Shown here: positions 35,476-52,035 of the stretch, piece after piece
How positions within the stretch are numbered: position 1 is the first letter of the stretch
Layout: the number at the start of each line of letters is the position of its first letter
IMG/VR virus record: IMGVR_UViG_3300016469_000571
Span: 1 to 64,000 of that record
DNA length: 64,000 nt
Direction: 5' to 3' (one strand)
Source of the DNA: a virus
The notes under the pieces: model-generated
What the model saw: only the letters and a program-made list of their open reading frames with translations
Told to the model about the DNA's origin: nothing
Databases searched by the model: none
Translations under genes and position numbers: made by a program

Positions 35476-36249
35476 TTATCCTGTAATAATTTCTGGACCA
35501 GATTTGTGTAAATAAATTGTATGCTCAAAATGAGCGCTTAAGTCTTTTGTAACAACTGTCCAATTATCTTGGAGAGTTTTTGTTTCATTTGAAAACCCTA
35601 GACAAAATAAAGGCTCTATAGCAAAAGACATTCCTTCTTGCAGTCTAATACCAGAATCTTTATCACTTCGATTAGAAACAAATGGTGAGTCATGTGGCTT
35701 GTTCATTGATATAAAATGACCACCATATTTTTCTATTACTTGAAAATTATAAGTTTTTCCAGTTTTATAAATAGAGTGACCTATTACTCCTAATTTAGCG
35801 CCTACTTTAACTTTAGAAATAGCTTCTTTTAAAGCAAGTTCTGTATATTTTACAAGATCTTGTGCTTTTTTATTTTCTCCTATTATTATTGTAATAGCAG
35901 AATCAGCTATTGCTCCTTCAAACGTTGCTCCTAAATCAAAACTAACTACATCTCCATTAAAAAATGGCTTATCTTTTGGTATTCCATGAACAAGCTCATT
36001 GTTCACAGATATACAAACTGCTTCTGGAAATCCATGAAAGCCTTTAAATGTAGGTTGGCATTTATTGTCTAATATAAAGGTCTCAATTAATTTTGAACAA
36101 CCTAAACCAGTTCTTTTGTGTGCCTCTGTTTTCAAAATAGACAAAGCTTGAGAAACAACTTTTCCGGCTATTCTTTGTTTCTCAAGCCATTCACTATTAT
36201 GAATAACACACAAAAGATTATCAACATAACCTTTTGAATGTATTTTCAT
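35476..36249 (-). CDS. map: Methionine aminopeptidase type I
   Basis: CISVNNELVHGIP, SFDLG, IADSA, GGH, AIEP, SAHFEHT. Confidence 0.95.
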   Translation of the reverse strand: MKIHSKGYVDNLLCVIHNSEWLEKQRIAGKVVSQALSILKTEAHKRTGLGCSKLIETFILDNKCQPTFKGFHGFPEAVCISVNNELVHGIPKDKPFFNGDVVSFDLGATFEGAIADSAITIIIGENKKAQDLVKYTELALKEAISKVKVGAKLGVIGHSIYKTGKTYNFQVIEKYGGHFISMNKPHDSPFVSNRSDKDSGIRLQEGMSFAIEPLFCLGFSNETKTLQDNWTVVTKDLSAHFEHTIYLHKSGPEIITG

Positions 36250-36250
36250 A

Positions 36251-36433
36251 TTACTCTTTTTTTTCTTCTTTAAATTGATTTATAATCTCTTCATTTAATT
36301 TATTATCTAAATCAGATAAAACCTCAATTAATTTAAAAGATGTTTTTTTGTTTGTTTTTGGATTTTCTATTTGATAATAAATATAATTTCTTATATTTAT
36401 TAAATCAGATATTTCACTTATTTTCTTTTTCAT
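36251..36433 (-). CDS. Small hypothetical protein
   Basis: 60-aa ORF in operon. Confidence 0.5.
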   Translation of the reverse strand: MKKKISEISDLINIRNYIYYQIENPKTNKKTSFKLIEVLSDLDNKLNEEIINQFKEEKKE

Positions 36434-36614
36434 TTAGCACTACATTTCCTTCTGGAGTTATTACATGATTTACTGTTAATCCATTGTTAATATAAACATT
36501 TAATATTTTATTTGTATATTTTAACTCTGCAATTTCTAATTGCAATTGAGCTATTTTTTTTTCTAATGTAGCTACATCAATAATTGCTCTATCTTTATCT
36601 GAGATTTTTTCCAT
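36414..36614 (-). CDS. Small coiled-coil hypothetical protein
   Basis: 66 aa with AAGG Shine-Dalgarno. Confidence 0.55.
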   Translation of the reverse strand: MEKISDKDRAIIDVATLEKKIAQLQLEIAELKYTNKILNVYINNGLTVNHVITPEGNVVLNEKENK

Positions 36615-36620
36615 TTTACC

Positions 36621-37898
36621 TTATAATAATTTAGCAGCCTCGGTTGCCAATCTGGATCTTTCACCTTTCATCAAAGTTACGTTTCCAAATATTTTAGAAC
36701 CTTTGAAAGCTTTTATAACTTTAGATAAGCCGTTGTTCATTATATTTAGATTTTTTGAATCTATTTGATTAGCATCTCCAGTTAATACTATTTTGGTGCC
36801 ATTTCCTGCTCTTGTTAGTAATGTTTTTATTTCGTGTTCGGAAAAGTTTTGAGCCTCATCAACAATAATAAAAGCATTTGGAATAGATCTACCTCTAGCA
36901 AATGTAATCAAATCTAATTCTATTTTACCTTTATTTACATACATTTCAAAATCTTTTTTCCATGTTTGACCTCTATCTTTGCTAGAGAATAGTAGCTCCA
37001 TAGAATCCATAATTGCTGCAAAGTGTGGGTTTTTCTTTTCTTCCAAATCTCCTGGTAAAAATCCTATGTCATTTCCTACAACTTCAACAGGTCGATAAAT
37101 AATTAACTTATCATAAGATTTATGATTTAAAACAGCTTCTAAGCCACAAGCTAAAACACATAAGCTTTTACCTGAACCAGCAACACCTAAAGCAGTTACA
37201 AGCTCTACGCTTTTGTCTAAAGATAATTCCATTAAGCATAATTGATCTTTATTTCTTGGAGTTAAATTCCAAGGCTTATGATCTCTTACTAGTTTTAATT
37301 TACCATTTGCCATTTTTCTTGATAATCCATAATTTTTCTCTGAATTATCATTAAATAATATAAATGAGTTTGTATCTAGTTCAAAAGGATCATCTACAGA
37401 ACCATTTGATTGAAGTTCAACGCCTATAGTATAATCATCTGAATATTTCATATGATTATTTAAATCTAAAAATGATATAGATTTTGTTCTATTAACCGCA
37501 GACATTTCAAATGCTTTTGCTTTAATTCTTAAATTAATATCTGCTGTAACTATACATACTTCTTTACCAGATAATCTTTGAATTTTAAAAGCACAGGATA
37601 AGATTTTATTATCTCCATATTTCATGTCTTGTAATAGATTTTCATCAAAATCAAAATCTATTTTTATTCTAGAGTTTTTCTGTATGCTTACATTTGATTC
37701 TTTAGAGTCTGTAAAAATCTCATCTAAAACTCTAATTGCAGCTCTAGCATTTTGAGATACTTCTCCTTGGTATTTTTTTAATTTATCCAATTCTTCTAAA
37801 ACTACATATGGAATAACAATTTGACAATCTTCAAATGAATATACAAGAGTTGGGTCTTCAACTAAAGCAGATGTGTCAAGTACGTAGATTTTGTTCAT
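36621..37898 (-). CDS. phoH: PIN-PhoH protein
   Basis: VLDTS, EELD, DNKIL, TADINLR (PIN); GVAGSGKS, GFLPG, RGRS, DEAQN, LTRAG, GDANQ (PhoH). Confidence 0.93.
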   Translation of the reverse strand: MNKIYVLDTSALVEDPTLVYSFEDCQIVIPYVVLEELDKLKKYQGEVSQNARAAIRVLDEIFTDSKESNVSIQKNSRIKIDFDFDENLLQDMKYGDNKILSCAFKIQRLSGKEVCIVTADINLRIKAKAFEMSAVNRTKSISFLDLNNHMKYSDDYTIGVELQSNGSVDDPFELDTNSFILFNDNSEKNYGLSRKMANGKLKLVRDHKPWNLTPRNKDQLCLMELSLDKSVELVTALGVAGSGKSLCVLACGLEAVLNHKSYDKLIIYRPVEVVGNDIGFLPGDLEEKKNPHFAAIMDSMELLFSSKDRGQTWKKDFEMYVNKGKIELDLITFARGRSIPNAFIIVDEAQNFSEHEIKTLLTRAGNGTKIVLTGDANQIDSKNLNIMNNGLSKVIKAFKGSKIFGNVTLMKGERSRLATEAAKLL

Positions 37899-37917
37899 TA
37901 ATGTCCTTTGAAAAAGA

Positions 37918-37963
37918 AAAAGATCCCTAACATTTTTCTATAATTATATGTTAAGGATCTTTT
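37918..37963. promoter_or_regulatory. Imperfect inverted repeat upstream of phoH
   Basis: aaaagatccctaacat-N14-atgttaaggatctttt. Confidence 0.45.
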
Positions 37964-38029
37964 AAGCTCATATTACTTTCATATGAAAAGTGATTTTATT
38001 ACAGCAGGAATTATTTTATATATATGGCA

Positions 38030-38368
38030 TCACAAAATTGTATTAAATTCTATAACGGCTTCTATATATATTTGATTTTTTCTATCAATTTCTGATAAAT
38101 CTTTTTTTATTTTATAAAAAGGCTTTATCATTCTAGCTATTTCTTTATTTTCAAAGTATACAACAAAATCATCCTCGTCAAGGACTTTTAAGTTATTCTT
38201 TTTAAGAATTTCTTTTATTTTAATTTTATTATCAATGGTATCTTGATCAAACAAACTACTTACATTTAATTCTAATGCTTCTAGAATTGATTTTAGAAAT
38301 TTATTTTTTTCTTCTTTTTCAAAAGATTGCTTATCTTCTGACATGTTTAAAAAATATGTTTGCTTCAT
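38030..38368 (-). CDS. Hypothetical protein
   Basis: 112-aa ORF. Confidence 0.6.
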   Translation of the reverse strand: MKQTYFLNMSEDKQSFEKEEKNKFLKSILEALELNVSSLFDQDTIDNKIKIKEILKKNNLKVLDEDDFVVYFENKEIARMIKPFYKIKKDLSEIDRKNQIYIEAVIEFNTIL

Positions 38369-38383
38369 TAATTATATTTTTAT

Positions 38384-39031
38384 TTATGAAGAGCACATAA
38401 CACATGCTTCTGGATTATCTAAAGAACATGCAAGCTCTTCTTGATTTTGAAGCTGTTTATTTTTTAATTCATCTTCTATTTTTCTATCTACTGTGAATTT
38501 TTGAGCACCCTTGTTTTGAGTTCTAGTATAATACACAATTGTTTTCAATCCTTTTTTCCATCCATAAAAATAAGCCGAAGTTAGTTTTGCAAATGTAGGG
38601 TCTTTAAAATAAAGATTTAAAGATTGTGATTGACATATAAATGCACCACGATCAGCAGACATGTCTATTAATGTTTTTTGAGACATTTCCCATACTGTTT
38701 TGTATAAAGATTTTAAATTATCTGGTATTTCATCAATGTTTTGAATTGATCCCTCGGATGCAATAATTTTTTGTCTTATTGTATCATCCCATAAATTTAA
38801 ATCAATTAAATCATCTACTAGATATTTATTTATCATAATAAATTCTCCAGAAGAAGTTGATCTTTTATATAAATTGGATGTAATTGCTTCAAAACACTCT
38901 GTATTTCCCATGATTTGACTTGTATTATGAGAAACAACACCATTTGATAGCAAATATTGATGATTTTCATTCACTTCCAAATCCCATGTTGGAATCGCCT
39001 CTTGCAATTTTTTTATTGATTTTATTTTCAT
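38384..39031 (-). CDS. nrdA: RNR alpha part 3: split-intein C-half (36 aa) plus C-terminal extein (179 aa)
   Basis: MKIKSIKK...TWDLEV...NGVVSHN|TSQIMG; extein contains QSQSLN, YY radical-relay tyrosines and terminal CVMC; AAGGA Shine-Dalgarno. Confidence 0.92.
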
Positions 39032-39923
39032 ATTCAATTCCTTTTTTTAATAAGCTTTTATTTATTACTTCTAATGACTCTTCGTCTGTAAAACTTTCCC
39101 AAATTATATAATAATCAAAACCTTTAGATTCTGCTAAATCTTTTTTTTCTTTATCTAATAAGTATACGGCGTTTGCATCTAATTGAACTTCTTTTTTTGA
39201 AAAAGAAAATCTTTTCCATTCAGACCATTCTTTGGAATTTAACTTTGATGGATTTGGATGAAACTTTTCACCATTATACTCAATAATAATTTTTAAATCA
39301 GGTATAGTAAAATCGTAATAACTTAATCGCTTTTTTTCTTTATTATAAATATAATACTCTTTATTTTCTTTAAAACCAAAGAAATGTTTTATGTTTTTTT
39401 GTTTTAAAAAACAAGATAATGGCTCAAAATATCTTAAAGATTTTTTAGAGGCATTGCAAAACTGAACTTTTTTCTTATTTAAGATTTGTTCTACTTTTAC
39501 AATTGCCTCATCACTTGAATATCCTTTTTTTATCCAAAAATCTACTGATGATGTATTTAAATTTTTTTCATAAAATTCTTTTCTTTTTAATTCAGCCTCT
39601 TCTTTAGAAAATCCTTTATTTATCCAATAGCTAGAATTAAAAACAGTATTTTTAGATTTTTTATTTTTATATTCACTCCATTTTATTTTACCTAAATCAT
39701 GCCCATATTTTTCAATATATTTTTCCTCTGTATGTTTTGATGTGTTTTGAAAAAGTCTAAATTTTTTTAGACCTTCTTCTTCTCCATATTTTTTTATAAA
39801 ATTTTCTTTAGATGTTGCTTTAGATTTTTTATATTCTATTATTTTAATATTAGCCTCTTCTAAGCTAATATTATCTCTTTTTGAAATATAAATTGGATCA
39901 TAAACACTATTTTTAACTTTCAT
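38967..39923 (-). CDS. Free-standing homing endonuclease (Vsr/PD-(D/E)xK-like) between intein halves
   Basis: [22 protein letters not shown]...A...GF....IWE; N-terminal KYGEEEG and W..KG.S.EEA repeats; overlaps the IntC2 start. Confidence 0.75.
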
Positions 39924-39968
39924 AAAAGCTATATAGCATTATAGCTAACATCAATAAATAAAAAAAAA

Positions 39969-40949
39969 TTACACTGAAACTATCTCATCATTTTCTGTTA
40001 GTTCATCAACTCTTTTCCAAATCTCTCCATTTGTAGATTTTACTAACAATAAATGATTATTTGTAAATTTATATTTTTTACCATCTTCAAATTCTATTTC
40101 TATTACATCTTTGTATCCATTATAATGAATACCTGGAGATTTTTTTAGCCCATCTTTTGTTTGTACAAATACATCTTTTTCAAATGGAATTGTCATTTGC
40201 TGATCTATTTGTTCTATTCTTTTCCAATCTATATTTTGTTGATCCATTAAAGAATATAAGGAAATTGGATTAAAATTAGCATCTAATATTTCATTTTCTC
40301 CAGATTGGCAAGATGCTGTCGGCATTGGGGCTAATAATAAGCTATTTCTTAATCCATTTTCTTTTATTTTTTGTTTTAGTGAATCCCAATTGTACATTTC
40401 TGGTTCTACTCCCCACATATCAAATTGTAATATTCCTTGAGATGCAGGGCTTCCATCAAAAGTCTCATATTTTCCATTTTTTATAGCCAAATCACAAGAT
40501 GTGTTTAGGGCACTAAAATATATTGTTTCAAATATATTTTTATTTAATTCTTTTGCATTATCAGAATCAAATGGAAATTTCATTTTTGCAAAAACATCTG
40601 CTAATCCTTGAACTCCTAAACCAATTGGTCTATGTCTAAAATTAGATTTTTTTGCGGCTTCTGTTGGATAAAATCCAATATCTATTACTTTATTTAAATT
40701 TTCAACTAGTATTTTTGTTATTTCAGATAGTTTATTGAAATTAAAATATAAATTACCTTTCTTTCCAGAAAGGCAAGAAGGTAAAGATATTGACGCTAAT
40801 GTACATACGGCAGTTTCATCTGGAGTGGATACTTCAAAAATTTCAGTACAATTATGAACTAAAATATCATTTGCAAAAAAATTTGCAGATTCTTCGATAG
40901 TAAAATCATATACAGGTATTTCTTCTTCTAAAAATTCTATTTCTAACAT
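39969..40949 (-). CDS. nrdA: RNR alpha part 2: IntC1 (33 aa) + middle extein (180 aa) + IntN2 (113 aa)
   Basis: VYDFTI...NDILVHN|CTEI...AVCTLAS...RPIGLGVQG...LLAPMPTAS|CQSG...FTNNH; own GAGGA Shine-Dalgarno. Confidence 0.93.
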   Translation of the reverse strand: MLEIEFLEEEIPVYDFTIEESANFFANDILVHNCTEIFEVSTPDETAVCTLASISLPSCLSGKKGNLYFNFNKLSEITKILVENLNKVIDIGFYPTEAAKKSNFRHRPIGLGVQGLADVFAKMKFPFDSDNAKELNKNIFETIYFSALNTSCDLAIKNGKYETFDGSPASQGILQFDMWGVEPEMYNWDSLKQKIKENGLRNSLLLAPMPTASCQSGENEILDANFNPISLYSLMDQQNIDWKRIEQIDQQMTIPFEKDVFVQTKDGLKKSPGIHYNGYKDVIEIEFEDGKKYKFTNNHLLLVKSTNGEIWKRVDELTENDEIVSV

Positions 40950-41003
40950 TAATCCTCGTAAATATAATTTATTTTTATGTCACTTTGTTTATAATGGCTC
41001 AAA

Positions 41004-42593
41004 TCATGATAAAAGTAACACATCATCCTTATTTAAATATTGAGCCTCTACATAACCTCTATTTTTTGTATAGATTTTATGATCTGGGGTACATTTTAAT
41101 TCTTTCCCATTGTATTTTATTTTAATAACTTTAGATTTCTCACTTGTTAAGCAAGATTTTAATATTTTATTAAATTTTAGCTCATTTGTATTTTCATTAC
41201 AACTTAATATATATAAGTCTTGTGTTTTTAATAAATCATTTACCTCTTTCATTGAAAGAGTATACTCTTCCAAATCATTTGGATTTTTCTTTACTCTAAC
41301 CATTGCATTTCCATCAATACATAAATTCGAGCTTTTAATTATTCCAATATTTTTTTGATTTGATTTTATATTTCCAGAGTCTTTTGCTAATAAATATGGC
41401 TGACCAGTTTCAATACATGATTCTAATATTTTAGACCAAATATCTCTTGCTTTTACTTTTTTTACAAATTTATTTTCATTTTCATATTTTGTATATAATT
41501 TTTCAAAATCCTCTCCATATACATCAGATAAGCCTTTTGAAATATTAGGGTCCATCAAAGACCAATCATCATCACTCTCTACTCTTTTAAAGAATAAATC
41601 AGGAGCCCAAATAGCTAGATTTAAATCTCTAGCCCTTAACTCTTCCTTACCATTATTTTTTCTTAAATCTAAGAAATCCTCTATATCACAATGCCAAGGC
41701 TCTAAATATGCAGCAAATGCGCCTGGTCTTTTACCACCTTGATTAACATACCTAGCAGTCTCATTATATACTTTAAGCATTGGAATAATACCATTACTTG
41801 ATCCACCAGTACCATATATATGGCTGCCTTTTGATCTAACATCGTGAATATGAAAACCAATTCCGCCAGATGATTTTGATATCTTCGCAACTTCTTTTAA
41901 AGTATCAAAAATACCAGATATAGAATCTTCTTTATTTGCTATTAAATAGCATGAGTTTAATTGATTTTGAACAGTACCAGCATTGAACAATGTTGGTGTC
42001 GCATGAGTTGCTTCCAATTTTGACAATAAATTATATGTATTTAAGCAAGCATCAATATCATCAAAATGAATACCACAAGCCACCCTCATCCACAAATGTT
42101 GAGGTCTCTCAACTATTTTATTGTCAATTTTTTGTAAATAACTTTTTTGTAAAGTTTTAAAACCAAAGTAATCAAACAAAAAATCTCTATTGTAATCAAT
42201 AGCACTATCCAAAACATGAGAGTGCTTTTTAACAAATTTAATTACATCATTAGAAATGAACTGTATTTTATTTCCATGAATATCTTGTTTATATGATAGC
42301 TTTTCAATTACATTTGAAAATGTACTATCTGTGTCTTTATGCAATCTAGTTATCTCTAATCTTAAATCTAGCTTATCATATTCTGGATTTTTTATTGACA
42401 TAGAATATGCAGTTTCTATTGCTAGAGAATCTAACTCTATTGTAGTAACACCATCAAATAAACCACCAATGACTTTTTGAGAAATATAATAAGCATCAAC
42501 GTTTTTTAAATCTTTTGATTGTCTTTGAATTCTTTTTAAAATCTTATCAAATTTTACAGTTTCTTTTTGTCCATTTCTTTTAACAACAAACAT
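41004..42593 (-). CDS. nrdA: RNR alpha part 1: ATP cone and N-extein (424 aa) plus IntN1 (105 aa)
   Basis: VVKRNG ATP cone, ATPTLFNAG, NSCY, GGIG, QGGKRPGA, ETGQPY, KSSNL|CIDG...CTPDHK. Confidence 0.95.
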   Translation of the reverse strand: MFVVKRNGQKETVKFDKILKRIQRQSKDLKNVDAYYISQKVIGGLFDGVTTIELDSLAIETAYSMSIKNPEYDKLDLRLEITRLHKDTDSTFSNVIEKLSYKQDIHGNKIQFISNDVIKFVKKHSHVLDSAIDYNRDFLFDYFGFKTLQKSYLQKIDNKIVERPQHLWMRVACGIHFDDIDACLNTYNLLSKLEATHATPTLFNAGTVQNQLNSCYLIANKEDSISGIFDTLKEVAKISKSSGGIGFHIHDVRSKGSHIYGTGGSSNGIIPMLKVYNETARYVNQGGKRPGAFAAYLEPWHCDIEDFLDLRKNNGKEELRARDLNLAIWAPDLFFKRVESDDDWSLMDPNISKGLSDVYGEDFEKLYTKYENENKFVKKVKARDIWSKILESCIETGQPYLLAKDSGNIKSNQKNIGIIKSSNLCIDGNAMVRVKKNPNDLEEYTLSMKEVNDLLKTQDLYILSCNENTNELKFNKILKSCLTSEKSKVIKIKYNGKELKCTPDHKIYTKNRGYVEAQYLNKDDVLLLS

Positions 42594-42602
42594 TTTTTCT
42601 CC

Positions 42603-43568
42603 TTAAAAATCTTCATCAAATTTAATTTTATTAGATTCTGCTGTTTTTCCTACAGATGCTTTTTGATATTCAATAACTCTTTTTTCAAAGAAATTGCTTT
42701 TTGATTTCAAAGCAATCAACTCCATAAAATCAAATGGATTTTTTTCATTATATATTTTAGAACAACCAAGCATTTGGCTCAATCTATCTGCACAAAATCT
42801 AACATAACATTTCATATCTTTTGAGTTCATTCCTATTAATTCAACTGGTAGTGAATCCGAACAGAACTCTTCTTCAATAGCAACAGCTTCTTTTATTATT
42901 TGGTGTATTTTTTCTTCGCTTACTTTTTCATTTGAAATTGAATGCAATAAACAAGCAAACTCACAATGTTGTCCTTCATCAGTTGATATTGCTTCATTGC
43001 TGAAAGCAAGACCAGGCATCAATCCTCTTTTTTTCAACCAATAAATAGAACAAAATGAAGAAGAGAAGAAAATACCCTCAACAGCAGCAAATGCAACTAA
43101 TCTTTCTTCAAAAGAAGCGTTTGAATCTATCCATTTTAAAGCCCACTCAGCTTTCTTTTTTACAACTGGGATTGTTTCTATTGCATTTAGTAATTTACTT
43201 TTTTCTTCATTATTTTTAATATATGTATCAATTAATAAAGAATAAACTTCTGAGTGAATTCCTTCGATCATTAACTGATAACCATAAAATATTCTAGCTT
43301 CAGGTATTCCAACATCGTTGTAAAATCTCATTGCTAAATTTTCTCCAACAATACCGTCTGAAGCCGCAAAAAAAGCCAACACATTTGAAATAAAATGCTT
43401 TTCATTGTTTGTTAATTTGTTCCAATCATCTAAATCTCTAGACAAATCAACTTCTTCTGCCGTCCAAAAAGCAGCCTCGGCTTCTTTATAGGCTTTCCAT
43501 ATATTATTATACTTAATTGGAAATAAAACAAATCTTGAGTTATTTTTTTCTGTTAAATTGCTCATCAT
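42603..43568 (-). CDS. nrdB: Class Ia ribonucleotide reductase beta subunit
   Basis: [37 protein letters not shown]. Confidence 0.96.
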
Positions 43569-43581
43569 CCTCTAAAATAAA

Positions 43582-43620
43582 AAATCTATCTTGATAGTAC
43601 TTTTACTACAAAATAGATTT
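43582..43620. terminator. Hairpin between the sigma gene and nrdB (possible terminator or regulatory stem)
   Basis: aaatctat-c-ttg-a-tagta / tacta-caa-a-atagattt arms. Confidence 0.35.
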
Positions 43621-43657
43621 CATGGTTAATTTATATTTCAATATTACTAATTGATAT

Positions 43658-44272
43658 TTATCGCATTTTTTTTAATAAAGATTTAATTTTTGTATTAATT
43701 TCTGATTTTTTTAATCCTGTTTTTTTGCTATACTCTTCTATAGTAATTTTATCTTTATTTATGCCAAATAAAGATTCTATCATATCCCTATCTTGTTCAT
43801 TTAATTTATTTATTTTTTTATTAACTATTCCTTCTTCTGTTTTTCTAACAAAAGAAATTTCTGGATTGAATGAATTATCTTCTGCATTGAGAGGTATCTT
43901 GTCCATTTTTGGTGGAGATTTTTTTGCAACAACTAATGGAATTCTAACTGTAGAATATGCATTGGCAGATCTATAAATTCTTGTATCTATATATTTGTGC
44001 AACCACCAAAAAATAGAACCTTTTGATTTATCAAAATTTTTTAATCCCATGACTAAAGCTTCATATCCATCTTGATTTAAATCATCATAATTTGAAAACT
44101 TTTTATATGCAGTTGTTTTTGAAAAAACCAAATATTTGAATTTTTCAACTAAAATATTTTCATGCTTTATTAGCTCTAATTTATCTTTTTTAGATTTTGA
44201 GCCATTGTATTTTTCTTTTAATTCAATAAATTTTAATGCTAGTTCTTGCGCTTCTTGCTCTGATATTGACAT
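43658..44272 (-). CDS. Sigma-70 family RNA polymerase sigma factor
   Basis: Region 2 DDLNQDG..AL......FD.SKG; region 4-like C-terminus. Confidence 0.8.
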   Translation of the reverse strand: MSISEQEAQELALKFIELKEKYNGSKSKKDKLELIKHENILVEKFKYLVFSKTTAYKKFSNYDDLNQDGYEALVMGLKNFDKSKGSIFWWLHKYIDTRIYRSANAYSTVRIPLVVAKKSPPKMDKIPLNAEDNSFNPEISFVRKTEEGIVNKKINKLNEQDRDMIESLFGINKDKITIEEYSKKTGLKKSEINTKIKSLLKKMR

Positions 44273-44279
44273 AACCCTC

Positions 44280-44465
44280 TTAGCTATAATTTGTTGACGC
44301 CCAACCGCCTCCTTTTAGTATAAACCCTCCTCCCTTGCTAATCAACCTCTCTACATTTGTTTTTAAATTATCCTTCTCACATTCTGGGCAAAACTCTAGC
44401 TTTTCAGAAATTTTATGTTCGACTTCAAATACCCCATGAATTGGACATTTATATTCGTAAATCAT
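44280..44465 (-). CDS. FmdB-like zinc-ribbon protein
   Basis: IYEYKC..H...E, CPEC, RLIS...FILKGGGW. Confidence 0.8.
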   Translation of the reverse strand: MIYEYKCPIHGVFEVEHKISEKLEFCPECEKDNLKTNVERLISKGGGFILKGGGWASTNYS

Positions 44466-44791
44466 TTACTTCTCCTAAACATATTTCCAAAATCTCTTTT
44501 AATCTTTTCTTTTGTCGCTACGTTTTCTTGGAACTTCTTTTCTCCAACAAGATTTGCCAAATAATTTTCATTTTTTGAAGCCTGCTGTTTCATTTTATTT
44601 ACTTCATCTTTTATTTTTTCTTTAAACTCTTCTGGATTTAACTCCATTCTTGCCCCACCTTCACAATTAATTAATCTTCTTACAGCCTCAGCACCACATG
44701 AAGGGCAATTTTTAGGAGGATTATCTTTTATTGAATATTCAGCTTCCCACTCATGATTGCACGCATCGCATTTATGTAAATATGTTATCAT
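44462..44791 (-). CDS. FmdB-like zinc-ribbon protein
   Basis: CDAC.HEWE, CPSCG, RRLI. Confidence 0.75.
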   Translation of the reverse strand: MITYLHKCDACNHEWEAEYSIKDNPPKNCPSCGAEAVRRLINCEGGARMELNPEEFKEKIKDEVNKMKQQASKNENYLANLVGEKKFQENVATKEKIKRDFGNMFRRSK

Positions 44792-44803
44792 CTATCTCCT
44801 TAA

Positions 44804-46198
44804 TTAAAATCCTTGCAATTCTTCCATATATCCTGATAAATCATTTGCATCTATAAATGTTTCATCTTCTAGTTCCATTTTATTATCAAATAATCCACCA
44901 CATTTAAAATCTTTAATCAAAGAACCTTTTCCTAATTCTCCTTCTCGATTTTTAATAATATAATACTCCATATCAGGGTATTGCTGTTCATTTTGTCTTG
45001 TATGAATTTGTATAGCTATATTGGCATTTGTTACAATTAAGCTTGATCTTCCAATTCGATGCATACCTATTTTTTCTTCTGTGTCTTTTGTTGGCTTCAT
45101 TCTATTTAACTGTACTGCACTCAATACTATTACTTTATGTACTCGACCAAATTCATGAACAGCAGCAGATATGTGACCTAGCTTTAACCAATCATCTAAC
45201 CCTTTATCATTTTCATAATCCATTAGACCTAAATAATCTATAGATACAATTTTAGGCAAGAAATAATTCTTTGTCTCTTCATAGATACTTTCTATTACTT
45301 CTATAGTAACTCCTCTAGGAGCATCAATTATTTCAAATTGATAAGGGTAGTTTTTAATAAAATCTAAAGCTTTTTTTACTCTTTGCTGCTCTTCTTTATT
45401 TAAAGTAGCTTTTTTAAGTTTATTTGATTCGACTCTTGCTAATCTAGCCAATACTCTTTGAAAACAAGCTTCAAAAGGCATTTCTAATGAAAAATATAAT
45501 ACATTATGACCAGTTGTAAACTGCGATGGATCTGTATCTATTGAATTATTTTGTAACCACATTTGTATAGACAAATTCATTAAATACATTGATTTACCAG
45601 AATTTGACTCTCCACAAATTAATACAAACTCACCATCTTGCAATCCATTTGTCTTTTCATCAAAAGATGAATATCCTGTTTTTACACCATCTTCAAATTC
45701 TTTACCATTTTTTCTTGCTTCAAGCTTAGAATTATATTTTTCCGTAAATAAACTAATTGCATCTTTTAATGTTCTTTTTTCAAAAGACTTTTTTCTATTT
45801 ATATTATTAATATCAGAAATAGTATTTTTTATCTTTGGTAACAAAGATAATAAATCTTCAGAAGAAGATAAATCATCTTTTAAATTAGAAATTTTATTTA
45901 ATGCAAATCTATTTTTTAATTCATTTAAATCATGCTTAAATTCTTTTTCTGAAAAAGAAATTTTTTCTAACTCATTCCAATTATTTTCTATAGTTTCTAA
46001 AAGTTTTTGATTTTTTGTTTTTTCTTTTAAAACCCTTAAAGTAGGAACATCTTTGTTAATAGAAATATATTTAATTACTGTTTGAGCAAATGCAAAATAT
46101 TTTTGTTCAAAGAAATTTGCATTGCACTCATAAACAAAATCTTGAGCTAATTTTTTATCTGTACAAATTGCTTTTAAAATTCTTAAATCTAAATTCAT
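44804..46198 (-). CDS. dnaB: Replicative DnaB-like helicase
   Basis: TGY..FD...NG, GESNSGKS, FSLEM, IDYL, QLNR, IKNREG. Confidence 0.9.
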   Translation of the reverse strand: MNLDLRILKAICTDKKLAQDFVYECNANFFEQKYFAFAQTVIKYISINKDVPTLRVLKEKTKNQKLLETIENNWNELEKISFSEKEFKHDLNELKNRFALNKISNLKDDLSSSEDLLSLLPKIKNTISDINNINRKKSFEKRTLKDAISLFTEKYNSKLEARKNGKEFEDGVKTGYSSFDEKTNGLQDGEFVLICGESNSGKSMYLMNLSIQMWLQNNSIDTDPSQFTTGHNVLYFSLEMPFEACFQRVLARLARVESNKLKKATLNKEEQQRVKKALDFIKNYPYQFEIIDAPRGVTIEVIESIYEETKNYFLPKIVSIDYLGLMDYENDKGLDDWLKLGHISAAVHEFGRVHKVIVLSAVQLNRMKPTKDTEEKIGMHRIGRSSLIVTNANIAIQIHTRQNEQQYPDMEYYIIKNREGELGKGSLIKDFKCGGLFDNKMELEDETFIDANDLSGYMEELQGF

Positions 46199-46887
46199 TT
46201 ACCTCTAAAATCTTTTCCAAATACAGTTATAGACTCTAAATATCCAGAAAATAAAGAACCTAAACTTTCTTTTAATTGACCACTAAATATATTTAACACA
46301 TTAGGACTATTTGTTGCCATCAATGTAGGTAATTTATTTTGTGACCTAGTTCTAAATATATTTTCTAAAACCCTAGCATATAAATCACTAGCATTTTCAG
46401 AAGCCATAAATCTTCCATCAAATTCATCAATTACAAGAAAATCTACAGTATTTAATTCTTTCTTAATCAAGAACTTTTCTTCATTGTTTGAAGAAAATAC
46501 AGATACCAAATCACTTAATGTAGTATAAAGACAACTATAATCTTTTAAACATGCAACTTTTAAAATATTAACTAATGTAGTCGTTTTTAAAGTACCATGT
46601 TTTCCACAAAGACAAAAAGATTTCCCATTAATATAAGAACTTCTTAAGTCTTTTGTATATTCTTCAAAAGTTTTTAGTAAAACTTTATCACCAGGAAAAT
46701 CTTTCATCCAAATATCCCAATATTCAACTGGAATATTTGCCTCATAATACCTATTTAAAGAGGTAATCTTAACTACTTTTAATTTACTATCTATAGAGCT
46801 TTCATTTATTTCTTGTATTTTTATGTCTAACTTTTTTATCGGTATGTTGTTTAGAGACTTTGAATGCTGAAAAGTTTGGTAATCCAT
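46195..46887 (-). CDS. DnaC/IstB-like helicase loader
   Basis: GKHGTLKTT (atypical Walker A), FLVIDEF, R.Q..LPT.MATN; adjacent to dnaB. Confidence 0.75.
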   Translation of the reverse strand: MDYQTFQHSKSLNNIPIKKLDIKIQEINESSIDSKLKVVKITSLNRYYEANIPVEYWDIWMKDFPGDKVLLKTFEEYTKDLRSSYINGKSFCLCGKHGTLKTTTLVNILKVACLKDYSCLYTTLSDLVSVFSSNNEEKFLIKKELNTVDFLVIDEFDGRFMASENASDLYARVLENIFRTRSQNKLPTLMATNSPNVLNIFSGQLKESLGSLFSGYLESITVFGKDFRGK

Positions 46888-47215
46888 AATTATTCTCTAT
46901 TTTAGGTTTTAAATTTTTAAATAAGTTATTTTTTTCTTCTTGAGCTTCTTTTATTTTCTCATCTACAATTTTCTTTGTACTTTCAAAAAGTATATCTTCG
47001 CTTTCAATAAGCGGCTCTTCTTCACCAAAGGAAATTGAAAAATCATCAGATTCAATTTCTGAATCTGTACTTTTTTGATCTTTAATATTCTCAATATATA
47101 AAATTTCTGATTGGTTTATATTATCTACTATATTTCCATTTTTTAATTTAATAGAAAATAAACCAACAAATTCGCCCTCTATAAAGAGGGCGTTTTTAAA
47201 AACTATTTTTATCAT
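46802..47215 (-). CDS. Hypothetical protein
   Basis: 137-aa ORF in the replication operon. Confidence 0.55.
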   Translation of the reverse strand: MIKIVFKNALFIEGEFVGLFSIKLKNGNIVDNINQSEILYIENIKDQKSTDSEIESDDFSISFGEEEPLIESEDILFESTKKIVDEKIKEAQEEKNNLFKNLKPKIENNYGLPNFSAFKVSKQHTDKKVRHKNTRNK

Positions 47216-47757
47216 ACAACCCTTGACAAAAATGATAAATCAAGATTTAATAACTTTATTTTTTCACAGTCGCTAGACTGTGACTGCATCATAAAGGCTA
47301 AATCACCATATGTCAAAATATTTTCATTTATAGTTTTAATTTTATTTATTAATTTTTCTGGTAATCTAGTAGCTCTATCTATTGTAGATAGTGTTTGATT
47401 TCTTAAATGTCTTGTTTTAAAATCTTTTAAAGAATACTCATTTGTTAAAAAACTAATTGATGTCAATCTTCTTTTAGATTTTTTAACTTTGTTTTCAAAA
47501 ATCCAATCAATATAATCTTTAAGAATAATTGGATCAGATGATAAGTTTATACATAACTTATTTATTTGAAAAACTTCAAAAGATTTAGATGGCTGTGGTG
47601 CATTGAACTTAAATTCATATTCAATATTATATTGGTCTTTGTACTTTTTACAAAAATAAGCCAATACACCTGTTTTTGACCAATTCTTACAATCAGTATT
47701 TTCTATCTCTATAAATTTTTCAAAAAACTTTTCATAATTTAAATTTGGAGCTTTCAT
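47212..47757 (-). CDS. Hypothetical protein in the replication module
   Basis: 181 aa with ATGA overlaps. Confidence 0.6.
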   Translation of the reverse strand: MKAPNLNYEKFFEKFIEIENTDCKNWSKTGVLAYFCKKYKDQYNIEYEFKFNAPQPSKSFEVFQINKLCINLSSDPIILKDYIDWIFENKVKKSKRRLTSISFLTNEYSLKDFKTRHLRNQTLSTIDRATRLPEKLINKIKTINENILTYGDLAFMMQSQSSDCEKIKLLNLDLSFLSRVV

Positions 47758-50435
47758 TTTCCTAATATCTTAAACCCTTCCTCTTCTGTATAAGTTTGAT
47801 ACCTAATCAATGAATGCTTATCTAAAAACCTAGTATTGTCCATAAAATCTATGACAGCTACTTTTGTTTTATCTTTATAAGCTCTAACAACTCGACCTAT
47901 TCTTTGCAAAGCTCTTATTTTAGATTTACCTCCACCACCTAAAACTAATCCAGATAATTTTGGCAAATCCATTCCAATATCAAATATTGTGCTCGCAATA
48001 ATACAATCTATATTATCATCATTTAATGCTTGCTTTATTTCATTTCTCTTTTCAAGAGAATCGTTTCCATAAAGCAATTCACATCTTATTCCTTCATTTA
48101 AAAACTCTTTGTATAAAATCTTACCATGCTCTATTGTTTTAAATAAAACCAATGGTTTGTATTTTTTCTCTATTAAAGATTTTGTATTTTTAACTATTAA
48201 AGCATTTCTAATGTCATTATTTACTATATATTCTTTATAAACTTCTTGAAATGTTCTTGCTTGTATTGTTTGGTGTGGAACATTTACAAATTTTATAATA
48301 GGCTGAGCTAAAATACCTTTTTCAATTAATTCTGTAGCAGATACATTGCAAATAATTCTACCAAGCATTGCTTCTGTAAGCAAATCACTACCATCATCTC
48401 TAAATGGCGTTCCTGATAATCCATATATTCTTTCTGGATCTATATATTTATAGATTTGTTGTAATGTCTCACAAGTACATGCATGACATTCGTCTATAAT
48501 ATGAACTTTTGCTTCTTTTAAGCATTTAAGAATTTTAAATTTGTCTTGTATCTTTGGTGGAAGTTCTCTAACAGTTTCATCGTCTATTGTTAGTGATGCT
48601 TTTTTTACCTCTAATGCAGATCCTATTGTCCAAACAGATGCTATTGTTAATCTTTTAGGATTGCAAATACCATTTCCTATCCATCCTATTTCTTCTTTAA
48701 AGATTTTTGAAAATAAATCGTGAAATTGCTGAAGAAGATCAAGACCTATTACATAGATTATAGTAGGCTTGTTAAATTCTTTTGTCATATAAGCAGAAAT
48801 TAAAGTATTATGATTTATAAATCCATTAGAAACAAAACTATGAGTCTCTGGTATGCAAAAATCATAATTATCAGACATTACTTTTTCTATATTAGAAACT
48901 TTTAAAAAAATCTTATCTTTTATAAGACTTTTAATTTCATTAACTTTTTCACTCTCTTCACAACTATCTAAATAATTCTCTAAATTTTTTTTAGATGGAT
49001 TTCTATAAATACCCCAAGATTTAATAGTTTTTGTTTTTTTAAATCCTAACTTTAATTTAGTATTTTTTATATTTGTTTTTTGAAATGGAATGCAATTAAC
49101 ATTTGGGTTAATATTTCTAATTTTAGAAATTATTTTTTTTATTTTATACCCATTTGGGTCTAAACCAATTTCATTCATAAATTTTGGAATGAATTCATTG
49201 TATATGCTTAATATAAAACAATCATTTCTTTTTGTTCTTTTTATTCTTTTTGAAGAAACAATTCCAAAATTTAATAAAATTGTTTGAATTTGATTTATTA
49301 AATTTTCATTAGACAAACCAACACATATTGCATTTGATTCTACCCAACCATCAGTCTCATATATTCCTCTTATAAACATAGCAAGAGGTTCTTTTTTTAA
49401 CATTCTTATGCTTTTAGGAATTTCTTTATTTATAGACTTAGAATATTTAAAACCATAATCATATAATTTTTTCCTATATGACGCCGAGTTTATAATTAGA
49501 TTTTTTGCTTTTGACTTTGTATCACAAATTTTGTGTTTTATATTTATTTTATTTAAATAATTAGATGCAAAATCTAATATATGTTGATCCATATTTGTTA
49601 AAACAACTCTGTTTTTAACGCTTAAACCACCATCACCCATAAGAAGTCCATACCAATAAGCCTCATCTAAGTCTAGATCATTAGATCCATACATTTGGGT
49701 ATTGTATGATATAGCAACATAATCTTCTTTTGATATTTCAGATAATTTTTTCCAATCTAATTGACCATTACCATTTATTACTTTAATTTTATGATTTAAA
49801 GTACCAGTTATTGAAAACCCATATCTTGTGGTAATTTTAATAGATTCAGAAACTCCATCATAATAAAAATGAGACGTAATGTCTTTGTTATTATTTGTTA
49901 AAGGTGTGGCAAGGTTAAGGTTAAGCTTTATGCTTTCTTTTTCTTTTATATTTAAATTAAAGATATTTTTTAATTCTTCAAAAGAAAGTATTCCTTTTTC
50001 TGTAATATTCAAAGAATTCTTTGATATACACTTACCGCTGCCAGTAGCTGCTCTAACTATTCCTATATTGGTTTGCTTGCATGTATCAACAATTTTTTGC
50101 TGATAATCTCTTAAATTATATCCAATATCATTGACAATTAATTCTGGCTCAATTGTTGGTACTTTTCTTTTATCTTCAATTGTATAATCAATTGAATTCT
50201 TTTCTAGAAATTCTTTTACTTTTACAAGTAAGCCGATTTGAAATTCATTTTTTTTATTTAATAATCTTGTAACTCCGTCCCATCCATTTTTATATGCTTG
50301 TGTATATTCAACACCTAATTGTTTGTAGGATAATAAATTTGAAATTCTCTTCATAAGAATTTCGTCATCAGACTCTATTTTACAAGATTTGTTATTTTTA
50401 ATTACTATCTTCATCGCTATAAAAATATAGCGCAT
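47754..50435 (-). CDS. SF2 DExH helicase (UvsW/XPB-like) containing a cis intein
   Basis: LRDYQ, ATGSGK|T, IDECH, SGTP, QRIGRVVR; the true start may be 50414. Confidence 0.9.
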   Translation of the reverse strand: MRYIFIAMKIVIKNNKSCKIESDDEILMKRISNLLSYKQLGVEYTQAYKNGWDGVTRLLNKKNEFQIGLLVKVKEFLEKNSIDYTIEDKRKVPTIEPELIVNDIGYNLRDYQQKIVDTCKQTNIGIVRAATGSGKCISKNSLNITEKGILSFEELKNIFNLNIKEKESIKLNLNLATPLTNNNKDITSHFYYDGVSESIKITTRYGFSITGTLNHKIKVINGNGQLDWKKLSEISKEDYVAISYNTQMYGSNDLDLDEAYWYGLLMGDGGLSVKNRVVLTNMDQHILDFASNYLNKINIKHKICDTKSKAKNLIINSASYRKKLYDYGFKYSKSINKEIPKSIRMLKKEPLAMFIRGIYETDGWVESNAICVGLSNENLINQIQTILLNFGIVSSKRIKRTKRNDCFILSIYNEFIPKFMNEIGLDPNGYKIKKIISKIRNINPNVNCIPFQKTNIKNTKLKLGFKKTKTIKSWGIYRNPSKKNLENYLDSCEESEKVNEIKSLIKDKIFLKVSNIEKVMSDNYDFCIPETHSFVSNGFINHNTLISAYMTKEFNKPTIIYVIGLDLLQQFHDLFSKIFKEEIGWIGNGICNPKRLTIASVWTIGSALEVKKASLTIDDETVRELPPKIQDKFKILKCLKEAKVHIIDECHACTCETLQQIYKYIDPERIYGLSGTPFRDDGSDLLTEAMLGRIICNVSATELIEKGILAQPIIKFVNVPHQTIQARTFQEVYKEYIVNNDIRNALIVKNTKSLIEKKYKPLVLFKTIEHGKILYKEFLNEGIRCELLYGNDSLEKRNEIKQALNDDNIDCIIASTIFDIGMDLPKLSGLVLGGGGKSKIRALQRIGRVVRAYKDKTKVAVIDFMDNTRFLDKHSLIRYQTYTEEEGFKILGK
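48807..50030 (-). mobile_element. Full-length intein (408 aa) with LAGLIDADG endonuclease, inserted in Walker A
   Basis: CISKNS...GTLNH...YGLLMGDG...IRGIYETDG...YDFCIP...GFINHN|T. Confidence 0.93.
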
Positions 50436-50447
50436 GTACTAGAATTG

Positions 50448-50777
50448 TCAATAAAACATCAAATATACTTCAAATTTATTAATATTGTTAATATAAATTT
50501 TGTCAAAGCTTTCAAAATATTTTTTAATATGATCAATGTCTTTTGTTTCTAAAATTTTATTTTCTATTTCTAGTAAATCATTTTTTGTACAACCAAGCTC
50601 AATTAAGGTATTAACAACTGATCTTACTAAATAAGTATTTGCGATTTGTAAACCGATCTTTTTTAAAGATTCTATATCTTTAAATTTTTTCTTAGAATTT
50701 TCTTTTAACAAAGTATCAGTAAATATATCAATACTTGATATTACTAGTTTATTTTCTTTTGTCGATAACATTTCCAA
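50448..50777 (-). CDS. Hypothetical protein (C-terminal EVYLMFY)
   Basis: 109-aa ORF. Confidence 0.55.
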   Translation of the reverse strand: MEMLSTKENKLVISSIDIFTDTLLKENSKKKFKDIESLKKIGLQIANTYLVRSVVNTLIELGCTKNDLLEIENKILETKDIDHIKKYFESFDKIYINNINKFEVYLMFY

Positions 50778-52035
50778 CTAACTTTCCAAAAGCAGAGTTC
50801 TTTTGAGCGATTTGTTCTTTTATTCTTTGCGCAGCAGAAACATTCTGTTCTTTACCAGAATCAAATGTAAGATTTAAATTCCTTCTATCTTCTTTTTCTT
50901 TAACTTTTTGCATTTGTAAGCTAACTTCTTTTTTCAAAGAATTAATCCTTGAATCTGGTAAGCTTAATCCAGAAAAGAAAGAATATACTTTTACATTATC
51001 TTCATTTGAATCAATTGTATAAATGCCTTTAAATATCCCAACAGGACTAGAGCATTGTTCATTTATCATTGCCATTGCATAATTAACACTTGCTGATGTA
51101 ATCTTATCCATTACTGCTTTATTTCCAGCTATGATAACACCAACATATTTGGCATCTTTAATATCAAAACCTTCTGCCAACATATTAGAAGTTAAATTTG
51201 AAATAACTGCTTCTGCAATTGCAGTTGGTTGTTCATAGTTTGATATAGTTAGCTCTCCATAAATAGATAAACCATCTCCATCTGTTAAAATTCTTGCCCA
51301 CTCTGTTGGATCTAATGGTTTTACACTAGATGGCATGGAAGATAAAGTATTAAATACATCAATTGGATTTGCTATAATTTTATTTGCTTGATTAAAAAAG
51401 TCAAGTTGGCTTACATTATGTAATAGCGCTTCTATTTTAGCATTATCAACAACAATTAAATTTGAAATCTTTTTTTGCTGAACTAATTTTGTTAGTTTTG
51501 ATAATGTGTCTAAAGAATTGGATTTTGTTTGAACATCATCAGATTCCATTGGCAATATTGCCATTACTACAATAGGTTTTCCTATGTCTGACAATACGTC
51601 AATTAATGTTAAACAAGAACCAGCACCAGAGCCTCCACCCAAACTAAAACATAATACATTTACTTCGCTAGCATCAAGCTTTGATAGTAGTTTTACTATT
51701 TGATCTTTATTAGACTCTGCTGCCTCTGAACCTATTAGCAAATCTTTTGCAGCACCACCTAGCCCATAATTTAGTAAAAGCTTATTCTGATCTGGAACCT
51801 CTATAAATTTAAGATCTTGCTGTGCTGTATTAATACATACAACATCATATCCTAACTTATAATAAACTTCAGCTAATCTTCCTCCACCTTGACCAGAGCC
51901 AATAAACCCTAAATTAATAGAACGCTCTTTTTTCTTTTTTACTTTGTTTTTTAACATGGCAAGAGTTTCTGAATCTATCTGTAAATCATCAATAATTGTT
52001 TCTTTTGCTTTTTCTTCTATAGAATTTTTAATCAT
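50749..52035 (-). CDS. Tubulin/FtsZ-family GTPase (PhuZ/TubZ-like)
   Basis: GSGQGGGR, INT..QDL, GAAKD, GGGSGAG signature, VVDN. Confidence 0.88.
   Translation of the reverse strand: MIKNSIEEKAKETIIDDLQIDSETLAMLKNKVKKKKERSINLGFIGSGQGGGRLAEVYYKLGYDVVCINTAQQDLKFIEVPDQNKLLLNYGLGGAAKDLLIGSEAAESNKDQIVKLLSKLDASEVNVLCFSLGGGSGAGSCLTLIDVLSDIGKPIVVMAILPMESDDVQTKSNSLDTLSKLTKLVQQKKISNLIVVDNAKIEALLHNVSQLDFFNQANKIIANPIDVFNTLSSMPSSVKPLDPTEWARILTDGDGLSIYGELTISNYEQPTAIAEAVISNLTSNMLAEGFDIKDAKYVGVIIAGNKAVMDKITSASVNYAMAMINEQCSSPVGIFKGIYTIDSNEDNVKVYSFFSGLSLPDSRINSLKKEVSLQMQKVKEKEDRRNLNLTFDSGKEQNVSAAQRIKEQIAQKNSAFGKLVGNVIDKRK

Follow-up and report, generated by a model that had tools for sequence, protein, structure and literature searches.

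The window examined here is a 64,000-nucleotide (nt) stretch of DNA from a large, uncultured and very AT-rich phage, positions 1 to 64,000 of the IMG/VR record IMGVR_UViG_3300016469_000571 (record length 94.5 kb), and all coordinates refer to it. It carries a class Ia ribonucleotide reductase (RNR) alpha-subunit gene, nrdA, that is divided among several open reading frames (ORFs). Four consecutive ORFs were found on the minus strand, downstream of the RNR small subunit gene nrdB (42603..43568, 9 nt upstream of the first of them; phrog_86, E 7e-59), and every feature of the locus lies on that strand. Part 1 (41004..42593) encodes 529 amino acids (aa), of which the first 424 form extein 1 (41322..42593, ending SSNL) and the last 105 the N-terminal half of a first split intein (IntN1; 41004..41321, including a TGA stop). 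Part 2 (39969..40949, 326 aa) comprises the C-terminal half of that intein (IntC1, 33 aa; 40851..40949), extein 2 (180 aa, from CTEI to PTAS; 40311..40850) and the N-terminal half of a second split intein (IntN2, 113 aa; 39969..40310, including a TAA stop). A free-standing gene of 318 aa (38967..39923) then lies inside the second intein, and part 3 (38384..39031, 215 aa) consists of IntC2 (36 aa; 38924..39031) and extein 3 (179 aa beginning with TSQI, plus stop; 38384..38923). An initial annotation of this DNA had described an RNR alpha encoded as three genes joined by two split inteins. When the proteins were cut by a script at the named motifs, all its coordinates, residue counts and motif cuts were reproduced, the exteins adding up to 424 + 180 + 179 = 783 aa, but the fourth gene, the 318-aa ORF predicted to encode a Vsr-like endonuclease, had been overlooked.

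The three exteins together make up a complete alpha chain. Aligned with yeast Rnr1 (PDB 1zyz), they matched residues 1-427, 428-610 and 611-765 plus 858-887, without gap or overlap (E 1e-157, 3e-66 and 1e-60, respectively), and the 523 positions of the PF02867 profile were likewise continued from piece to piece (2-213, 212-392 and 392-523). The class Ia domain set is complete over the three pieces, with the ATP-cone (PF03477), the all-alpha domain (PF00317) and the first part of the ten-stranded barrel (PF02867) in extein 1. The roles of the RNR catalytic residues are established from E. coli and yeast R1. In the 1zyz alignments all of them were present and, as the initial annotation had held, spread over the three chains: NSC in extein 1, Cys(thiyl)-x-Glu and AVC in extein 2, and the YY radical-transfer pair and the C-terminal CxxC (CVMCSS) in extein 3. 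Hence the three ORFs encode one class Ia RNR alpha chain, together with two different split inteins, each catalytically complete and divided into complementary halves. One alternative is that mobile elements have invaded the gene repeatedly and left it decaying and non-functional, as proposed for the degenerating, intein-riddled nrdA of Campylobacter phages (PMC3653736), and the fact that the sequence covers only part of the genome would leave room for it. Nevertheless, the exteins show zero frameshifts and zero internal stops, all of the above catalytic motifs are kept, nrdB is intact and adjacent, and the layout is conserved in many divergent phages, all of which makes decay very unlikely. 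The three-piece gene is, moreover, the only RNR alpha of the 94.5-kb record.

Parts 1 and 2 share one frame and are separated by a gap of 54 nt (40950..41003) inside the first split intein, which holds in-frame TGA, TAA and TGA codons and the GAGGA motif, and is without an endonuclease gene. As initially noted, parts 2 and 3 each have their own Shine-Dalgarno (SD) sequence and ATG, with GAGGA 6 nt before the ATG at 40949 and AAGGA 7 nt before that of part 3, and the RNA is unstructured around both starts. The shared frame would suit the idea that the locus is really one ORF with cis-splicing inteins, its stops being either artefacts of assembly or sequencing or codons that are read through or recoded. 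This explanation would have to account for three stops in the gap, of two kinds, ahead of a good SD and ATG, for the complete endonuclease gene, in a different frame, that separates parts 2 and 3, and for breaks which, in both inteins, fall at the canonical HINT split position (about 100 + 35 aa), a feature shared by dozens of homologues. Copies in other collections speak against it as well: identical part 2 and endonuclease sequences are present in JGI, Logan and ENA, and another contig of 85,339 nt encodes a 529-aa part 1 with one substitution, and therefore has the same stop. We regard errors or readthrough as extremely unlikely; judged by these copies, the stops of parts 1 and 2 are genuine and not assembly errors. 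RNA splicing into a single frame had also been raised as a way in which the initial proposal might fail, but a scan of the window detected no Rfam family within 36000-52000 (E up to 0.1), and thus no group I intron was found there. The feature as a whole is real and was correctly read from the start. A single-residue population variant was observed in the ATP-cone, at window position 42368 (part 1 codon 76), where the window encodes Asp and the near-identical 85-kb contig Ala (KLDLRL vs KLALRL); the aligned residue of yeast Rnr1 is Ala.

Both inteins carry the full class 1 set of splicing residues, namely Cys1, TPDH (block B), VYDF (block F), VHN (block G) and a +1 Cys in intein 1 (105 + 33 aa), and Cys1, TNNH, TWDL, SHN and a +1 Thr, in the same order, in intein 2 (113 + 36 aa). 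The thiyl-radical Cys immediately follows site 1 and is confirmed to be also the +1 residue of intein 1, as first proposed, the site being the same as that reported for NrdA-1 to NrdA-7 (PMC2677866); site 2 falls between PTAS and TSQ. IntN1 matched PF14890 and the solved NrdJ-1 split intein (8ubs, E 1.3e-9), and when IntN1 and IntC1 were read through the gap, PF14890 was matched above its cut-off over positions 10-155 (52.8 bits); IntN2 also scored above the cut-off of this family (44.7 bits). Conservation among homologues centres on the same residues. Y14, D15, H32 and N33 of IntC1, and C214, N298 and H299 of IntN2 (part 2 numbering), were invariant in 21 part 2 homologues with 42-53% identity, and W16, D17, H35 and N36 of IntC2 were invariant in a comparison of 7 third pieces. 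Net charges of IntN1 and IntC1 covaried across 7 loci (r = -0.94), which fits physical pairing of the two halves, although this is suggestive only, because the 7 loci are not independent.

The topology of the middle piece, IntC-X-IntN, makes orthogonality of the two pairs a requirement, because a matched pair on this piece would cyclise extein 2. The best local alignments between intein 1 and intein 2 gave 9/24 and 10/31 identities; judged by these, the two are unrelated beyond their shared motifs, and we infer that the pairs are orthogonal. An AlphaFold2 (AF2) model of the whole middle piece left IntC1 (residues 1-41) undocked from IntN2, with a predicted local distance difference test score (pLDDT) below 50, which is weakly compatible with such orthogonality. 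In the window, IntC1 and IntN2 are both acidic (net charges -9 and -8), and charge repulsion was considered as a guard against self-cyclisation. It was rejected, the averages over 38 homologues being +2.3 for IntC1 vs -9.5 for IntN2.

A spacer of 45 nt separates the part 2 stop from the 318-aa ORF in the second intein. By sequence this ORF matched no Pfam family and, with sequence or profile searches, nothing in the PDB, and its only phrog match was phrog_22677, of unknown function. Its identity comes instead from fold comparison. The AF2 model, built on 34 homologues (mean pLDDT 87.6), shows a helical N-terminal half with repeated motifs and, at residues 159-296, a Vsr-like nuclease domain that was superposed on the catalytic domain of I-Bth0305I (3r3p_A: Z 9.3, root-mean-square deviation 2.6, 95/97 residues) and on Vsr itself (1cw0_A, Z 9.3; 1vsr, Z 8.7); the Foldseek E-values taken alone were weak (0.02-0.3). 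D204, E215 and G218 were invariant, and H222 nearly so. The ORF is thus predicted to be a Vsr-like (EDxHD) homing endonuclease. It shares with I-Bth0305I (PMC3239194; 3r3p) the catalytic-domain fold and the conserved acidic and His positions; the gene for I-Bth0305I, however, lies within a recA group I intron, whereas the window ORF is free-standing in a split intein and has a different helical N-terminal half. Homologues were found between IntN2 and IntC2 in the loci L010, L065, L011, L013 and L027 (E 3e-77 to 3e-29; L-numbers denote the IMG/VR loci used as relatives). The last 65 nt of the endonuclease gene (38967..39031) also encode the beginning of part 3, read in a different frame. In L010, L027, L065, L013 and L011 the corresponding ORFs are separated by no more than a few nt or share up to about 64 nt. 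Translational coupling is possible. A hairpin with a 7-bp stem before the endonuclease ATG was rejected as a regulatory element, being no more stable than shuffled sequence (z = -0.21), and promoter and terminator scans gave results at or near shuffle expectation.

With a Vsr-like endonuclease gene between the halves of its intein, site 2 is a textbook fractured gene (Dassa 2009): N-extein-IntN, a 45-nt spacer, a free-standing endonuclease gene and IntC-C-extein follow each other on one strand. At site 1, relatives have a gap of 0.8-1.3 kb holding a GIY-YIG ORF, and the window only 54 nt; the endonuclease gene of this site has presumably been lost in the window, which in this respect resembles gp41-7.

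The layout is not peculiar to this phage. Among the 120 best part 2 homologues, at least 38 clusters (90% identity) share the IntC1-extein-IntN2 arrangement, and the three-piece layout is common in metagenomes. L065, L009 and L011 repeat the double split, the latter two with a third break in addition. Intact, cis-intein and split alleles, the states that the initial annotation had thought worth seeking in related phages, were all found in a census of 73 complete genes, each classified per site. In this set, 34 genes were intein-free, 18 had a cis intein at site 1, and in 13 the only cis intein was at an upstream site; 3 were in separate ORFs only at an upstream break, 3 were split only at site 2, 2 were split at site 1 and unsplit at site 2, and 4 were split at both sites. 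On a FastTree phylogeny of the concatenated exteins (a quick tree, with L065 on a long branch), doubly split genes appeared in three separate places, and the sister of the window gene was the intein-free L037 (Shimodaira-Hasegawa-like support 97). Near-identical genes differing by one intein were also found, for example L041 and L030. Such a distribution is the pattern that would be expected of mobile elements often gained and lost.

A three-piece gene was also found in an RNR of another class. L008:4426-7909 (IMGVR_UViG_3300036715_002378) encodes a class II (B12-type, 1l1l-like) RNR in three pieces, whose first split intein is inserted one residue after the catalytic Cys (NPC/..HN/SEI, slashes marking the intein boundaries), which is the NrdJ-1 point. 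Its second IntN is 60% identical over 60 aa to the window IntN2, and its second gap holds a different, HNH-looking ORF. This locus suggests exchange of inteins between RNR classes: the same two lineages would occupy homologous sites of a class I enzyme, in the window, and of a class II enzyme, in L008, pointing to homing across enzyme classes. In L065 (3221-5971), the first intein is apparently shifted by one residue (SNLC/C..HN/CEI), a NrdJ-type point in a class Ia gene.

The third break, present in L072, L033, L078, L009 and L011, lies at a point corresponding to residue 285 of the window extein (VDQ/GG), where the window is contiguous. The upstream piece has an IntN-like tail with Cys1 and TxxH. 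In L072, L033 and L078, the IntC ends in VHN followed by Gly, that is, with no nucleophile at +1, and in L009 and L011 the next piece begins with MKRKGS, without any IntC. No intron reached the Rfam gathering score in L008, L009, L011, L065 or L072.

Breaks with non-canonical or missing intein parts would fit a reading in which the intein halves merely dock and no peptide bond is made, the pieces of the enzyme assembling non-covalently. There is a precedent in phage Aeh1 (nrdA-a / mobE / nrdA-b), whose split class Ia NrdA, devoid of inteins, is an active enzyme (Friedrich 2007; Crona 2010, PMC3045599) that works without ligation (PMC2677866, PMC3045599). Aeh1 resembles the window in being a T4-like phage with a free-standing homing endonuclease gene breaking up its class Ia nrdA; it differs in that its pieces are only two and non-covalent, that inteins are absent and that the break is at another position. 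In the window and its divergent homologues, however, all the nucleophiles and assisting residues of both inteins are conserved, none of which docking needs, and site 1 cuts directly at the radical Cys loop. Non-covalent assembly as the mode of action is, in our view, quite unlikely.

We therefore prefer the reading that three polypeptides are trans-spliced by two split inteins into one RNR alpha chain, to which we assign a probability of about 0.85 on the basis of sequence. The nrdB-nrdA block would yield three polypeptides, Ext1-IntN1, IntC1-Ext2-IntN2 and IntC2-Ext3, in which IntN1 would pair with IntC1 and IntN2 with IntC2, each pair folding as a HINT domain. We infer both the pairing and the splicing, which would follow the class 1 steps: an N-S acyl shift at Cys1, trans-esterification to the +1 Cys (site 1) or the +1 Thr (site 2), Asn cyclisation and an acyl shift back to give the peptide bond. 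The product would be a 783-aa class Ia RNR alpha with native SSNL-CTEI and PTAS-TSQI junctions, having NrdB as its partner. The two inteins would act independently and in either order. The locus may be seen as what two selfish elements have left behind. The putative Vsr-like endonuclease gene, still in place between the halves at site 2, probably drives homing into alleles without the intein, if active; at site 1, an endonuclease gene (GIY-YIG in relatives) would have been lost, leaving the 54-nt gap. Three considerations weigh against this reading. The argument for orthogonality draws only on low similarity, measured over short local alignments (9/24 and 10/31); the record is estimated by CheckV to represent about 22% of the genome, so that a second RNR might be encoded elsewhere; and the non-canonical third breaks of the relatives indicate that intein-like tails by themselves do not prove splicing.

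Compared with systems already described, each element of the locus is known separately. Single split inteins in fractured phage-type genes, to which the initial annotation had rightly referred, were reported from the GOS metagenome for NrdA-1 to NrdA-7, NrdJ-1/2, gp41 and IMPDH (Dassa, London, Stoddard, Schueler-Furman, Pietrokovski 2009, PMC2677866). In that set, the spacers measure 27-51 nt and the free-standing endonuclease is of the GIY-YIG or Vsr-like type, with gp41-7 being endonuclease-less (PMC2677866). The window locus is alike in that a split intein interrupts a phage-type gene of replication or nucleotide metabolism in the same one-strand order, with a spacer of 45 nt; in that the insertion point of NrdA-1 to NrdA-7, directly before the thiyl-radical Cys, is its site 1; and in the parallel between gp41-7 and its 54-nt gap. 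It is unlike them in having two inteins and three pieces, where each of those genes has one split intein and two pieces, and its site 2 (PTAS/T) is absent among the NrdA sites described in the text of that paper. Multiply interrupted RNR genes are known from cultured and huge phages, Campylobacter phages among them (PMC3653736). Engineered tandem trans-splicing (PMC12707363, PMC7090010) uses the same order, A-IntN1, IntC1-B-IntN2 and IntC2-C, with pairs that must not cross-react; there, inteins of different origin were combined in the laboratory, whereas here the pairs co-occur in one natural gene.

Within the literature searched in full text, which leaves most subscription journals outside, we found no natural gene cut by two split inteins, and three-segment trans-splicing in print was found only as an engineered method (same literature, few subscription journals). 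PolB1 and PolB16 were considered as multi-intein genes and set aside, since their numbers appear to label insertion sites and not inteins per gene. Two split inteins in one natural gene are thus apparently undescribed in print. The initial annotation knew of no description of a natural enzyme needing ordered three-piece trans-splicing: no paper describing the layout was found in that literature either, but nothing supports a fixed order, and the layout itself is common in metagenomes. We slightly favour the broader view that natural tandem trans-splicing is routine in phages, with orthogonal co-resident pairs and the same intein lineages homing across class I and class II RNR, and that this has apparently gone undescribed in print.

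Protein engineers rely heavily on split inteins, and to ligate three segments they need pairs free of cross-reaction. If natural tandem trans-splicing is true, these loci would offer ready-made orthogonal pairs. Together with the dozens of homologues, they would form a pool probably pre-selected for orthogonality, since the topology of the middle piece punishes cross-reaction, and one intein in this pool is related to the fast NrdJ-1 intein. The locus is of moderate relevance, both to intein biology and as a natural source of co-resident split-intein pairs. It shows how far selfish elements may fragment an essential phage gene without killing it, and within a single gene family several stages of the homing cycle can be seen, namely genes that are intein-free, that have a cis intein, or that are split either with or without an endonuclease. 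Genes of this kind are easily mistaken for fragments or pseudogenes during annotation.

Elsewhere in the window, a UvsW-like helicase of 893 aa (47754..50435, minus strand; PF21241, ResIII, Helicase_C) contains, at about residues 136-544, a contiguous intein with a LAGLIDADG endonuclease domain, so that the same phage has both cis and split inteins. A PhuZ-like tubulin gene (phrog_4733, E 8e-11) lies at 50749..52035 on the minus strand, and the GC content is 22-32% over 36000-45000. The tubulin, the low GC and the CheckV estimate of 22% for the 94.5-kb record suggest a jumbo phage.

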